NCBI RefSeq assembly: GCF_024223415.1
Contig: NZ_CP100500.1
DNA length: 64,000 nucleotides
From: Escherichia coli
GTDB lineage: Bacteria; Pseudomonadota; Gammaproteobacteria; Enterobacterales; Enterobacteriaceae
Strand: one strand, 5' to 3'
Part shown: positions 21,660 to 26,403 of the stretch, in pieces
Position numbering within the stretch: the stretch's first letter is position 1
How the letters are laid out: each line of letters begins with the position of its first letter
Notes under the pieces: generated by a model
Seen by the model: the letters and a program-made list of their open reading frames with translations, nothing else
Told to the model about the DNA's origin: nothing
Databases searched by the model: none
Translations under genes and position numbers: made by a program

Positions 21660-21849
21660 ACTGCAGGCGCTGCGTCAGGCGCGCCTTGATTTATTAACCG
21701 GTAAACGGGTGGTGTCTGTCCAGAAAGATGGTCGCAGAATTGAATATACGGCGGCTTCTCTGGATGAGCTTAACCGGGCGATCAATGATGCGGAGTCGGT
21801 ACTGGGGACAACCCGACGTCGCCGTCGTCCGCTGGGAGTGAGGTTATGA
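21643..21849 (+). CDS. W: Head-tail joining protein W
   Basis: 68-aa ORF with LTGKRVVSVQKDGRRIEYTAAS resembling lambda gpW. Confidence 0.8.
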   Translation: MVTVAELQALRQARLDLLTGKRVVSVQKDGRRIEYTAASLDELNRAINDAESVLGTTRRRRRPLGVRL

Positions 21850-23438
21850 AAAGAACGCCTGTCCTGATTGATGTGAACGGCGTTCCGCTTCGTGAGAGTC
21901 TCAGCTACAACGGGGGCGGCGCAGGATTTGGCGGGCAAATGGCGGAGTGGTTGCCACCGGCGCAGAGTGTCGATGCGGCCCTGCTGCCCGCGTTGCGTCT
22001 GGGGAATGCCCGGGCAGATGATCTGGTGCGCAATAACGGAATAGCGGCTAATGCGGTGGCCCTGCATAAGGATCACATAGTCGGGCATATGTTTCTGATC
22101 AGCTACCGTCCGAACTGGCGCTGGCTGGGGATGCGGGAGACCGCAGCAAAAAGCTTTGTCGATGAGGTGGAGGCGGCCTGGTCGGAATACGCCGAAGGGA
22201 TGTCTGGCGAGATCGACGTGGAAGGAAAACGCACGTTCACGGAATTTATCCGTGAAGGTGTGGGCGTTCATGCGTTTAACGGCGAAATCTTTGTGCAGCC
22301 GGTCTGGGATACGGAAACCACGCAGTTATTCCGTACGCGTTTTAAAGCCGTGAGTCCGAAACGGGTGGACACGCCTGGACACGGTATGGGGAACCGCTTT
22401 CTGCGGGCCGGGGTGGAGGTCGATCGGCATGGACGGGCCGTTGCGTACCATATCTGTGAGGATGATTTTCCGCTCTCTGGTAGTGGACGATGGGAACGGA
22501 TCCCGCGTGAACTTCCCACCGGGCGTCCGGCCATGCTGCATATTTTCGAGCCGGTTGAGGACGGGCAGACCCGTGGGGCTAATCAGTTTTACAGCGTCAT
22601 GGAACGGCTGAAAATGCTCGATTCCCTGCAGGCAACACAGCTTCAGTCAGCCATAGTGAAGGCGATGTATGCAGCGACGATTGAAAGTGAACTTGATACC
22701 GAAAAGGCCTTTGAATATATCGCCGGTGCGCCGGAGGGGCAGAAGGATAATCCGCTTATTAATATTCTGGAGAAGTTCTCCAGCTGGTATGACACGAATA
22801 ACGTGACACTGGGCGGTGTCAAAATTCCGCACCTTTTCCCCGGTGATGATCTGAAACTACAGACTGCGCAGGATTCAGACAATGGATTTTCTGCGCTTGA
22901 ACAGGCGCTGCTGCGGTATATCGCCGCCGGTCTTGGCGTTTCCTACGAACAGTTGTCCCGTGATTACTCGAAGGTCAGTTATTCAAGTGCCCGCGCCTCC
23001 GCCAATGAGTCGTGGCGCTATTTTATGGGGCGGCGAAAATTTATTGCGGCCCGGCTGGCCACGCAGATGTTTTCCTGCTGGCTGGAAGAGGCTCTTCTGC
23101 GGGGGATTATTCGTCCGCCACGGGCGCGTTTTGATTTTTATCAGGCGCGTTCATCCTGGTCACGGGCAGAGTGGATTGGAGCCGGAAGAATGGCCATTGA
23201 CGGGCTCAAGGAGGTCCAGGAATCGGTGATGCGCATTGAGGCCGGACTGAGCACGTATGAGAAAGAGCTGGCGCTGATGGGTGAGGATTATCAGGACATT
23301 TTCCGCCAGCAGGTCAGGGAATCTGCAGAGCGGGAAAAAGCCGGACTCTCACGTCCGGTGTGGATAGCGCAGGCGTATCAGCAGCAGATAGCGGCGAGTC
23401 GCAGGCCGGAAGAGGAGACAACACCACGTGAGACGTAA
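21846..23438 (+). CDS. B: Portal protein (lambda gpB-like)
   Basis: 530-aa ORF in the lambda B position. Confidence 0.85.
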   Translation: MKRTPVLIDVNGVPLRESLSYNGGGAGFGGQMAEWLPPAQSVDAALLPALRLGNARADDLVRNNGIAANAVALHKDHIVGHMFLISYRPNWRWLGMRETAAKSFVDEVEAAWSEYAEGMSGEIDVEGKRTFTEFIREGVGVHAFNGEIFVQPVWDTETTQLFRTRFKAVSPKRVDTPGHGMGNRFLRAGVEVDRHGRAVAYHICEDDFPLSGSGRWERIPRELPTGRPAMLHIFEPVEDGQTRGANQFYSVMERLKMLDSLQATQLQSAIVKAMYAATIESELDTEKAFEYIAGAPEGQKDNPLINILEKFSSWYDTNNVTLGGVKIPHLFPGDDLKLQTAQDSDNGFSALEQALLRYIAAGLGVSYEQLSRDYSKVSYSSARASANESWRYFMGRRKFIAARLATQMFSCWLEEALLRGIIRPPRARFDFYQARSSWSRAEWIGAGRMAIDGLKEVQESVMRIEAGLSTYEKELALMGEDYQDIFRQQVRESAEREKAGLSRPVWIAQAYQQQIAASRRPEEETTPRET

Positions 23439-24933
23439 TCTTTCACACATTATTGCCGCAGCATTCAATGAACCGCTGCTTCTGGAGCCCGCCTATGCGC
23501 GGGTTTTCTTTTGCGCGCTCGGGCGCGAGATGGGGGCAGCAAGTCTTTCGGTACCACAACAGCAGGTACAGCTTGATGCTCCCGGAATGCTGGCTGAAAC
23601 GGACGAGTACATGGCCGGAGGTAAACGACCGGCCCGTGTTTACCGGGTGGTGAACGGTATTGCTGTACTGCCGGTGACCGGCATGCTGGTGCACCGGCTG
23701 GGTGGTATGCGGCCATTTTCCGGAATGACAGGCTATGACGGCATTGTCGCCTGTCTTCAGCAGGCAATGGCGGACACCGCTGTCCGGGGCGTACTGCTGG
23801 ACATTGACAGTCCGGGCGGGCAGGTCGCAGGCGCGTTTGACTGCGCTGACATGATTTACCGCCTCCGTCAGCAGAAGCCGGTCTGGGCACTGTGCAATGA
23901 CACGGCCTGTTCTGCAGCCATGCTGCTGGCGTCGGCCTGCTCCCGACGGCTGGTTACCCAGACATCCCGTATCGGCTCCATTGGCGTGATGATGAGCCAT
24001 CTCAGCTATGCCGGTCATCTGGCGCAGGCCGGTGTGGATATCACGCTGATTTATGCCGGGGCGCACAAGGTGGATGGCAATCAGTTTGAAGCCTTACCGG
24101 AAGAGGTGCGTCAGGACATGCAGCAGCGCATTGATGCGGCACACCGGATGTTTGCCGAAAAAGTGGCGATGTATACCGGGCTGTCTGTGGATGTGGTCAC
24201 GGGAACAGAGGCCGCCGTTTTTGAAGGTCAGTCCGGCATTGAGGCCGGGCTGGCGGATGAATTAGTCAATGCGTCGGATGCCATCAGTGTGATGACCACG
24301 GCGCTGTACACACATGATACAGGAGGCACTATGCCGCAATTAACTGCAACGGAAGCCGCCGCGCAGGAGAACCAGCGAGTGATGGGGATCCTGACGAGTA
24401 AGGAAGCGAAAGGACGTGAACAGCTTGCCACGATGCTGGCGGGACAACAGGGCATGAGCGTTGAACAGGCCCGGGAGATCCTGGCCGCGGCGGCACCACA
24501 GCAGCCGGTGGCATCCGCGCAGAGTGAAGCCGATCGCATTATGGCGTGTGAAGAGGCGAAAGGTCGTGAACAACTGGCGGCAACGCTGGCGGCGATGCCG
24601 GAGATGACGGTGGAAAAAGCCCGCCCGATCCTGGCAGCTTCACCGCAGGCGGATGCCGGACCATCACTCCGTGATCAGATCATGGCCCTGGATGAGGCAA
24701 AAGGGGCTGAGGCGCAGGCTGAACAGCTGGCTGCCTGCCCGGGAATGACCGTGGAGAACGCCCGGGCTGTGCTGGCTGCGGGATCAGGTAAGGCAGAACC
24801 GGTCTCTGCATCCACAACCGCCATGTTTGAACATTTCATGGCGAACCATTCACCGGCAGCGGTACAGGGTGGCGTGCCACAGACGTCAGCAGACGGTGAT
24901 GCGGACGTGAAAATGCTCATGGCCATGCCATGA
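23428..24933 (+). CDS. C: Head maturation protease / scaffold (lambda gpC-like, S49 peptidase family) with three C-terminal ~40-aa tandem repeats
   Basis: 501-aa ORF in the lambda C position; repeats of the form EAKGREQLA...M..E.AR.ILAA. Confidence 0.8.
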   Translation: MRRNLSHIIAAAFNEPLLLEPAYARVFFCALGREMGAASLSVPQQQVQLDAPGMLAETDEYMAGGKRPARVYRVVNGIAVLPVTGMLVHRLGGMRPFSGMTGYDGIVACLQQAMADTAVRGVLLDIDSPGGQVAGAFDCADMIYRLRQQKPVWALCNDTACSAAMLLASACSRRLVTQTSRIGSIGVMMSHLSYAGHLAQAGVDITLIYAGAHKVDGNQFEALPEEVRQDMQQRIDAAHRMFAEKVAMYTGLSVDVVTGTEAAVFEGQSGIEAGLADELVNASDAISVMTTALYTHDTGGTMPQLTATEAAAQENQRVMGILTSKEAKGREQLATMLAGQQGMSVEQAREILAAAAPQQPVASAQSEADRIMACEEAKGREQLAATLAAMPEMTVEKARPILAASPQADAGPSLRDQIMALDEAKGAEAQAEQLAACPGMTVENARAVLAAGSGKAEPVSASTTAMFEHFMANHSPAAVQGGVPQTSADGDADVKMLMAMP

Positions 24934-24969: not shown

Positions 24970-25317
24970 ATGGTAACGAAAACCATCACTGAACAGCGTG
25001 CGGAAGTACGTATTTTTGCCGGTAATGATCCGGCTCATACCGCCACAGGCAGCAGCGGGATTTCCTCGCCAACACCGGCACTGACGCCCCTGATGCTGGA
25101 TGAAGCCACCGGGAAACTGGTGGTCTGGGACGGACAGAAAGCCGGTAGTGCGGTTGGCATACTGGTACTGCCGCTTGAAGGCACAGAGACGGTGCTGACG
25201 TATTACAAGTCGGGAACCTTTGCGACGGAGGCAATCCGCTGGCCTGACAGTGTGGATGAACACAAAAAGGCCAACGCCTTTGCCGGTAGTGCCCTGAGTC
25301 ACGCGGCGCTGCCGTAA
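24970..25317 (+). CDS. D: Head decoration protein (lambda gpD-like)
   Basis: DPAHTATG ... TPLMLD ... WDG ... YKSGTF ... FAG motifs shared with lambda D. Confidence 0.85.
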   Translation: MVTKTITEQRAEVRIFAGNDPAHTATGSSGISSPTPALTPLMLDEATGKLVVWDGQKAGSAVGILVLPLEGTETVLTYYKSGTFATEAIRWPDSVDEHKKANAFAGSALSHAALP

Positions 25318-25374: not shown

Positions 25375-26403
25375 ATGGGATTGTTTACGACCCGCCAGTT
25401 ACTCGGTTATACCGAACAAAAAGTGAAATTTCGTGCGCTGTTTCTGGAGCTGTTTTTCCGTCGTACGGTGAATTTCCATACCGAAGAGGTGATGCTGGAC
25501 AAAATTACCGGAAAAACGCCGGTGGCGGCCTATGTCTCCCCGGTTGTTGAAGGAAAAGTGCTGCGTCATCGTGGTGGTGAAACCCGCGTGTTGCGTCCGG
25601 GCTACGTCAAGCCGAAACACGAATTTAATTCCCGGCAGGCGGTTGAGCGCCTTCCTGGTGAAGATCCGGCTCAACTGAACGATCCGGCTTACCGCCGTCT
25701 GCGTATCATTACCGATAACCTCAAACAGGAAGAGCACGCGATTGTCCAGGTGGAAGAAATGCAGGCGGTAAATGCCGTGCTGTATGGCAAATACACCATG
25801 GAAGGAGACCAGTTCGAGAAAATTGAGGTCGATTTTGGCAGGTCGACGAAGAATAACATTACGCAGGCCAGTGGTAAAAAATGGTCTGAGCACGATCGTG
25901 ACACGTTCGATCCTGCGCATGATATTGACCTCTACTGCGACCAGGCCAGCGGCCTTGTGAATATTGCCATTATGGACGGTACCGTCTGGCGTCTGCTGAA
26001 TGGTTTTAAGCTGTTCCGCGAAAAACTGGATACCCGTCGCGGTTCAAATTCGCAACTCGAAACGGCAGTGAAAGACCTGGGGGCGGTGGTGTCTTTCAAA
26101 GGGTATTACGGTGATCTGGCCATTGTGGTGGCGAAAACGTCTTATGTGGCAGAGGACGGTACCGAAAAACGTTATCTGCCAGACGGCACGCTGGTCCTGG
26201 GGAATACTGCTGCAGATGGGATCCGTTGTTACGGTGCCATTCAGGATGCACAGGCGTTGTCTGAAGGAGTGGTGGCCTCTTCCCGTTATCCGAAACACTG
26301 GCTGACGGTGGGGGATCCCGCCCGTGAATTTACCATGACGCAGTCCGCGCCGCTGATGGTGTTGCCGGACCCGGATGAGTTTGTGGTGGTACAGGTGAAA
26401 TAA
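25375..26403 (+). CDS. E: Major capsid protein (lambda gpE-like)
   Basis: PGYVKPKHE ... QVEEMQAV ... KLDTRRGSNS ... TGDPAREFTM ... SAPLM resemble lambda E. Confidence 0.9.
   Translation: MGLFTTRQLLGYTEQKVKFRALFLELFFRRTVNFHTEEVMLDKITGKTPVAAYVSPVVEGKVLRHRGGETRVLRPGYVKPKHEFNSRQAVERLPGEDPAQLNDPAYRRLRIITDNLKQEEHAIVQVEEMQAVNAVLYGKYTMEGDQFEKIEVDFGRSTKNNITQASGKKWSEHDRDTFDPAHDIDLYCDQASGLVNIAIMDGTVWRLLNGFKLFREKLDTRRGSNSQLETAVKDLGAVVSFKGYYGDLAIVVAKTSYVAEDGTEKRYLPDGTLVLGNTAADGIRCYGAIQDAQALSEGVVASSRYPKHWLTVGDPAREFTMTQSAPLMVLPDPDEFVVVQVK

Follow-up and report, generated by a model that had tools for sequence, protein, structure and literature searches.

What are the three similar peptides of about 40 residues that follow one another near the end of a prophage head gene of Escherichia coli, how many copies do related phages carry, and what may the units do? 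The gene lies in a 64,000-nucleotide stretch of DNA, referred to here as the window. A preliminary description, made from the letters of the window, had assigned the repeats to the C-terminal part of a gpC-like protease and scaffold gene. It also suggested that they may belong to an in-frame product like Nu3 of phage lambda and that their number could vary among relatives. Scaffold function is among the less understood steps of lambda head assembly. Lambda Nu3 is essential (PMC10695390). It is needed for incorporation of the portal (B), has Nu3 itself, C and E as interaction partners, and may undergo degradation by C (PMC3224144).

Results

A head protease gene with a putative nested scaffold gene

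By its domain, its location and its C-terminal homology, the window gene is a lambda C/Nu3-type S49 prohead protease. The open reading frame begins with GTG, encodes 501 amino acids and shares 11 nt with the end of the portal gene (Table 1). Pfam family PF01343 matches residues 146-291 with E = 6.3e-36 (124 bits against a cutoff of 24.9), the NCBIfam SppA_dom model matches the protease at 2.4e-32, under its curated cutoff, and phrog_53, 'head maturation protease', matches the 501-aa protein with E = 1.2e-223. The S49 peptidase part occupies the N-terminal two-thirds of the reading frame and the scaffold region the C-terminal third. The peptidase part includes NDTACSAAMLLAS, which we take to be the counterpart of NDMNCSAGQLLAS in lambda C; the serine of the lambda segment is said to have been identified as catalytic by Medina et al. 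in 2010. The gene order around the protease (portal, decoration, major capsid, FI) is that of the lambda head module, and the annotations of phage 21, lambda and a matching E. coli prophage show it too. The Peptidase_S49 domain, the phrog_53 match and the position between the portal and the gpD- and gpE-like genes bear out the earlier designation of the gene as gpC-like.

Table 1. Positions of the head genes, the repeat units and associated features in the window
Feature	Position	Strand	Basis
Portal ORF, upstream of the protease gene	21846-23438		
S49 prohead protease gene with C-terminal scaffold region (homologue of phage 21 gene 5 and lambda C)	23428..24933	+	ORF list
Peptidase S49 (SppA-like) catalytic domain, aa 146-291	23863..24300	+	Pfam PF01343
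AGGAGG Shine-Dalgarno box, 4 nt before the nested ATG	24321..24326	+	read from sequence
Nested in-frame scaffold gene, putative, 200 aa (analogue of phage 21 gene 6 and lambda Nu3)	24331..24933	+	annotated equivalent CDS
Unit 1 (Tri1), aa 314-358, ENQRVMGILTSKEAKGREQLATMLAGQQGMSVEQAREILAAAAPQ	24367..24501	+	unit HMM, 79.7 bits
Unit 2 (Tri2), aa 367-407, EADRIMACEEAKGREQLAATLAAMPEMTVEKARPILAASPQ	24526..24648	+	unit HMM, 71.6 bits
Unit 3 (Tri3), aa 415-453, RDQIMALDEAKGAEAQAEQLAACPGMTVENARAVLAAGS	24670..24786	+	unit HMM, 64.7 bits
C-terminal tail, aa 454-501	24787..24930	+	sequence comparison, alignment, AF2
gpD-like ORF, downstream of the protease gene	24970-25317		
gpE-like ORF, downstream of the protease gene	25375-26403		

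Phage D2 (OM475427.1) matches the protease gene only from nucleotide 198 on, leaving window positions 23428-23625 unmatched, and this limit suggests that the 5' end of the gene, beside the portal gene, contains a mosaic joint.

The putative nested gene shares frame and stop with the protease gene, and all three units fall within its predicted product. Its AGGAGG box and ATG correspond to the ribosome-binding site and start of phage 21 gene 6, which argues that the repeats lie, as had been suggested, in the region of a Nu3-like in-frame product. An equivalent nested coding sequence is annotated in both phage 21 records (M81255.1 and OL657228.1), with a ribosome-binding site at the equivalent position. 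The methionine encoded at 24331 is conserved across the three-copy homologues, and many database gene calls begin at it. Pfam and NCBIfam searches with the 200-aa scaffold part gave no match or spurious sub-threshold ones. The products of lambda (201 aa), phage 21 (200 aa) and Gifsy-1 (197 aa) brought up the idea that the nested product is fixed at about 200 aa regardless of copy number; it was rejected, as the phi80 record has a 137-aa product.

In the tail behind the third unit, a helix is predicted over MFEHFMANH (about 24808-24849) and a short terminal helix over VKMLMA (about 24901-24918). AlphaFold2 (AF2) places these helices at Nu3-like residues 160-173 and 191-196, with low confidence. 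F166 and M170 of the tail are nearly invariant in an alignment of three-copy proteins. The pattern (aromatic/Leu)-D/E-x-F/L-M ... LLxxxP is common to the window and lambda, where it reads LDRLM ... LLNTPV.

Three repeat units that are the Tri boxes of phage 21

A profile of the unit, built on nine copies taken from five phages and the window, finds three domains in the window protein (65-80 bits). Compared pairwise, the units give BLOSUM62 local scores of 95, 80 and 102, where shuffled sequences average about 26 +/- 5, corresponding to z-scores of 14.5, 10.2 and 13.5. The three tandem repeats first noticed in the letters are real, standing 10-14 standard deviations above shuffles. Their reported range, 24350-24760, was slightly displaced, starting 17 nt early and missing the last ~26 nt of unit 3. 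The reported length of about 40 aa holds for the unit itself; the tandem period is 47-53 aa, made up of a unit of 39-45 aa and a Pro/Ala/Gln-rich linker of 8-9 aa. Three stretches each are also matched by phrog_8399 ('head scaffolding protein'), phrog_8940 ('capsid assembly protein', 3e-29 on the C-terminal region) and phrog_17040.

Unit 1 is the window copy closest to the single unit of lambda, and the first helix of unit 2 is 3 aa shorter than that of unit 1. Unit 3 has diverged most and carries GAE where GRE is otherwise near-invariant. In the window and phage 21 it reads KGAEAQAEQLA, against KGRE.LA..LA in almost all others, including unit 3 of Gifsy-1, so that the near-invariant Arg and one core Leu have been lost in that copy.

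The window gene is 96.5% identical in nucleotides to phage 21 genes 5/6 over all 1506 nt. In GenBank record M81255.1, 'Tri1 box', 'Tri box' and 'Tri3 box' are annotated as repeat_region features, all three with the remark 'function unknown; putative'. They correspond to window positions 24398-24501, 24538-24648 and 24679-24792, and overlap the three HMM domains. The window repeats are these Tri boxes, which were already on record and are not new. The paper behind phage 21 genes 5/6 and the Tri boxes is reportedly that of Smith & Feiss 1993 (Gene 126:1). In OL657228.1, a newer record of phage 21, the products are named capsid protease/scaffolding protein and scaffolding protein. Over the 603 nt of the scaffold region, NZ_CP033635.1 matches the window at 100%. 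The prophage of that genome carries tRNA-Ile and tRNA-Arg genes about 10 kb upstream (L011 9586-9739) and ARAGORN finds no tRNA gene in window positions 1-64000; the two prophages therefore differ outside the head module.

The repeat is detectable at the protein level only. Tandem Repeats Finder reports no DNA repeat in the unit region, and the window units share 54-66% of their nucleotides yet are conserved as protein, with dN/dS well below 1. These observations speak against a role of the repetition at the level of nucleic acid, for instance in regulation, in RNA structure or as a hotspot of recombination. Such a role could be argued from in-register fusions of units 1 and 2 (in P0022), as these indicate that recombination between units occurs, and from two minus-strand 'CII binding sites' (TTGYN6TTGY) that OL657228.1 annotates inside gene 6 and that recur in the window at 24336-24349 and 24570-24583. 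However, the window contains 16 copies of TTGYN6TTGY, where chance predicts 14.2, and the annotated sites, rejected as candidates, are probably mere pattern matches. A nucleic-acid-level role is effectively refuted.

Copy number among relatives

Comparison with lambda C/Nu3 and prophage homologues established that the repeats are not fixed in all homologues and that the suspected variation in copy number exists. A single unit is present in lambda, phi80, 2B8 and Aeromonas phage phiARM81ld; phage 21 and Salmonella Gifsy-1 resemble the window in having three, and some E. coli prophages have two or four. The two-unit forms include the fusion noted above (P0022) and losses of unit 2 (P0017, P0018), and unit 2 is half-deleted in P0008 and P0012, the latter with 53 database members. 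Four units are present in P0033. Since natural variants have lost or halved unit 2 in frame, three copies may not be required; these prophages may themselves be defective.

The census of copy number is based on an exhaustive search of sequence representatives and on complete genomes. A first protein search returned mostly contig-end fragments and was therefore used for variants only. Among 1.84 billion representatives, the profile finds the unit in 1078 clusters (50% identity) at E <= 0.001. Near-complete units in the best 150 of these clusters number one in 139, two in 6 and three in 3; among those best-150 proteins of at least 380 aa, 52 have one unit and 1 has three. An S49 domain is present in 10 of 10 unit matches of at least 490 aa, within a scanned set of 194-844 aa. 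Given the single unit in 139 of the best 150 clusters, one copy is the rule and the triple form a derived state within an enterobacterial lineage.

In complete E. coli genomes, the lambda-type one-unit region is found in 3228 of 5426, the 21-type three-unit scaffold region (matches of at least 90%) in 1869 and the four-unit form in 106. The window gene is thus a near-identical copy of a prophage gene carried by roughly one in three complete E. coli genomes. Among the approximately 1870 carriers, the three-unit region is covered to at least 80% in 1863.

Some database sequences stood apart. Four lambda C-like S49 proteases (P0104, P0107, P0109, P0110) are fused to Nu1, tail protein U, tail protein L or a fragment of the tape-measure protein; considered as natural architectures, they were rejected as most likely lambda vector deletions or misassemblies. 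A Gifsy-1-like sequence (P0195) has Ala, Thr, Ser and Pro systematically changed to Val, Met/Ile, Phe and Leu, the pattern expected if C-to-T converted reads, for example from bisulfite treatment, had been assembled and translated.

History of the array and selection on the units

A neighbour-joining tree of the units, which at about 40 residues is only indicative, groups them by position. The first units cluster together and adjoin those of lambda and phi80, the second units of the E. coli and Salmonella forms cluster together, and the third units mostly do likewise. This positional grouping suggests, with the same reserve, that the triplication is older than the split of phage 21 and Gifsy-1. 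Expansions appear to have recurred: units 2-4 of the four-copy form cluster together, and the units of a two-copy protein from an unrelated lineage (P0129) are self-similar.

The motif core (EA.G.E..A..LA....M...A...L) is invariant in each unit across 16 three-copy proteins. For the three units, dN/dS is 0.21 against phage 21, 0.25 against PhiR12_1 and 0.12 against Gifsy-1, where dS is saturated. The protease domain has similar values (0.15-0.36), and the linkers and tail lie above the units at long range (0.41). These ratios indicate that all three units are under purifying selection. Between the window and PhiR12_1 (L012), synonymous divergence is about 0.9 in unit 3 and about 0.1 in units 1 and 2, a jump suggesting that recombination has left a mosaic joint within the array of repeats.

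The main rival to a functional reading of the array holds that the extra two units are dispensable duplicates of a unit that suffices alone, as in lambda, with units 2 and 3 serving mainly as a spacer from the protease or N-terminus to a C-terminal capsid-binding tail and replacing the spacer of lambda. The gap between the S49 domain and the first unit is indeed about 67 low-complexity residues in lambda against about 20 in the window. The natural variants without a whole unit 2 (P0018, P0022; halved in P0008 and P0012) and the loss of the GRE Arg from window unit 3 also fit this explanation, as does the likeness of one-copy and three-copy phages in capsid genes and genome sizes. However, a mere spacer would be expected to decay to low-complexity sequence like that of lambda, whereas the motif core is kept in all three units of 16 diverged proteins and the units have lower dN/dS than the linkers and tail at long range. 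Moreover, the three-copy form is fixed in almost all E. coli genomes that carry it. Given the above, we consider it distinctly unlikely that units 2 and 3 are redundant or act as a spacer.

Predicted structure of the unit

AlphaFold2 predicts unit 1 with its flanks, from a 75-sequence alignment, as a three-helix bundle with helices at residues 6-21, 30-37 and 44-53 (pLDDT 93, pTM 0.77). In the model of the 200-aa product, each unit again has three helices at pLDDT 73-83, with linkers at 62-64 and a pTM of 0.29. These values predict a beads-on-a-string arrangement, in which independent modules are connected by flexible linkers. The fold of the unit recurs in predicted structures of other phage S49 proteases (TM 0.79-0.85) and was not found in other scaffold families among predicted viral structures. 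Sequence searches of the PDB with the protein and with the unit profile gave no meaningful relative. Foldseek with the whole 200-aa model gave no match in the PDB, as expected for a beads-on-a-string model of low pTM. The unit has no Pfam model and no solved relative.

Near-invariant charged residues of the unit (E13, R16, E25, R29) could form a binding surface, and a second alternative takes the units as capsid- or portal-binding elements, analogous to the helix-turn-helix of P22, whose copy number sets how many subunits each scaffold molecule holds. Consistent with that alternative, no other part of the scaffold region is as conserved as the unit across the 1078 clusters, the unit is present in both the protease and the scaffold, which must both enter the prohead, and the lambda scaffold interacts with the capsid protein E and is needed for incorporation of the portal protein B (PMC3224144). 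However, the same charges could equally stabilise the fold, the unit has no structural or sequence likeness to the scaffolds of P22, phi29 or other solved phages, and the conserved motif of the C-terminal tail could itself be the capsid anchor. In our estimate, capsid or portal binding as the main role of the units is possible, if on the unlikely side.

Discussion

The repeats of the window are very probably, as the Tri boxes of a phage 21-type lambdoid prophage, a module of the head scaffold. The module of about 40 aa would be the conserved core of the scaffolding part in lambda-type head protease and scaffold proteins. The region with the units appears to be used twice, once as the C-terminal third of the gp5/C-like protease and again as the bulk of the gp6/Nu3-like scaffold. 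By homology with lambda, the gp6-like product is likely a transient head scaffold. As the gp5-like protease shares the C-terminal region of the scaffold, it would enter the same structure.

How the units may work is suggested by their predicted fold. Each would fold alone into a small three-helix bundle, the bundles being joined by Pro/Ala/Gln linkers and followed by a tail of about 48 aa with an amphipathic helix. We propose that the units are protein-protein interaction modules that link scaffold molecules and protease during prohead building, and that they may also contact the portal and the inner capsid surface. Under this scenario, the three copies would be a multivalent counterpart of the one copy that lambda carries behind a long unstructured spacer. 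The protease would degrade the scaffold after assembly, leaving the units absent from the virion. Taken alone, multivalent binding by the units is a tentative proposal, which we hold with slightly more doubt than confidence.

If P22, phi29 and 80alpha are a guide, the extreme C-terminal tail, rather than the units, may bind the capsid; the conserved tail of the window protein may be a capsid anchor. Lambda gpNu3 is described as intrinsically disordered in the title of a 2011 paper by Medina et al. Such disorder sits uneasily with a confidently folded module, although the unit makes up only about 45 of the 201 Nu3 residues.

Overall, little is at stake, as the repeats were already annotated in the phage 21 head-gene record. 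Beyond that record, the present analysis counts unit copies across relatives, describes a four-copy variant, predicts the fold with confidence and provides evidence of selection. Although frequent in phage S49 protease and scaffold proteins, the module lacks a Pfam family or a solved structure. The natural variants with one to four copies provide a simple genetic handle on the function of lambda-type scaffolds. If the copies do confer valency, a change in their number would alter the kinetics or fidelity of assembly, and the E. coli prophages with 1, 2, 3 and 4 copies would be a ready-made allelic series relating scaffold valency to capsid assembly. More speculatively, and in our view rather improbably, the Tri unit could be a widespread uncatalogued phage domain, placed nearly always behind an S49 prohead protease, and a handle by which lambda-type scaffolds and proteases grip the portal or capsid lattice, with the copy number of 1-4 as a tunable valency.

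Comparison with known systems

The closest known relative is phage 21. Its scaffold part is 96% identical in amino acids, its products have the same 501 and 200 aa, and ribosome-binding site, ATG and repeats are co-located. The two differ by point substitutions only; for example, the comparison of window and phage 21 sets TSKEAKG against TCQEAKG in unit 1 and ACEEAKG against VCEEANG in unit 2. The window copy, for its part, belongs to a prophage in the chromosome of E. coli.

Gifsy-1 STM2605 likewise has three units in the same order, positionally orthologous to those of the window, with the internal Met co-located and 56% amino acid identity over the scaffold part. It differs in being strongly diverged, with saturated dS, and in a unit 3 that keeps the canonical GRE. 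The 538-aa S49 peptidase of STEC309 (WP_096934546.1) shares the architecture, the neighbourhood and an internal AAGGAG-ATG start. Its four-unit gene (NZ_CP041435.1; L010 1598-3214) sits in an intact-looking head module, and its units, 72-80% identical in DNA, are far more alike than the three of the window. That likeness is consistent with a recent lineage-specific expansion or with homogenisation or gene conversion within the array.

Lambda C/Nu3 resembles the window gene in its S49 domain, gene position and related C-terminal tail, its nested scaffold product of about 200 aa has a putative counterpart in the window, and it has a homologous unit, ENSRIMGILNCEEAHGREEQARVLAETPGMTVKTARRILAAAPQ (87.7 bits). 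Lambda C is shorter, with 439 aa against 501, and carries its single unit (aa 357-400) after the low-complexity spacer described above. The relationship is found at the protein level only, lambda being absent from the DNA matches in a megablast of the window gene.

Among scaffolds outside the lambda type, gp8 of P22 is transient and largely flexible and ends, at its C-terminus, in a small helical module. The module is present in one copy, no protease is fused to it, and the scaffold is recycled rather than degraded. The C-terminal domain of P22 gp8 has no sequence or fold match to the unit. Its helix-turn-helix coat-binding domain is a functional analogue only, the window module being likewise small and, by prediction, helical. 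As tandem three-helix-bundle binding modules, the protein A/Z domains, the albumin-binding GA modules and the UBA/CUE domains form a further set with which the three units can be compared.
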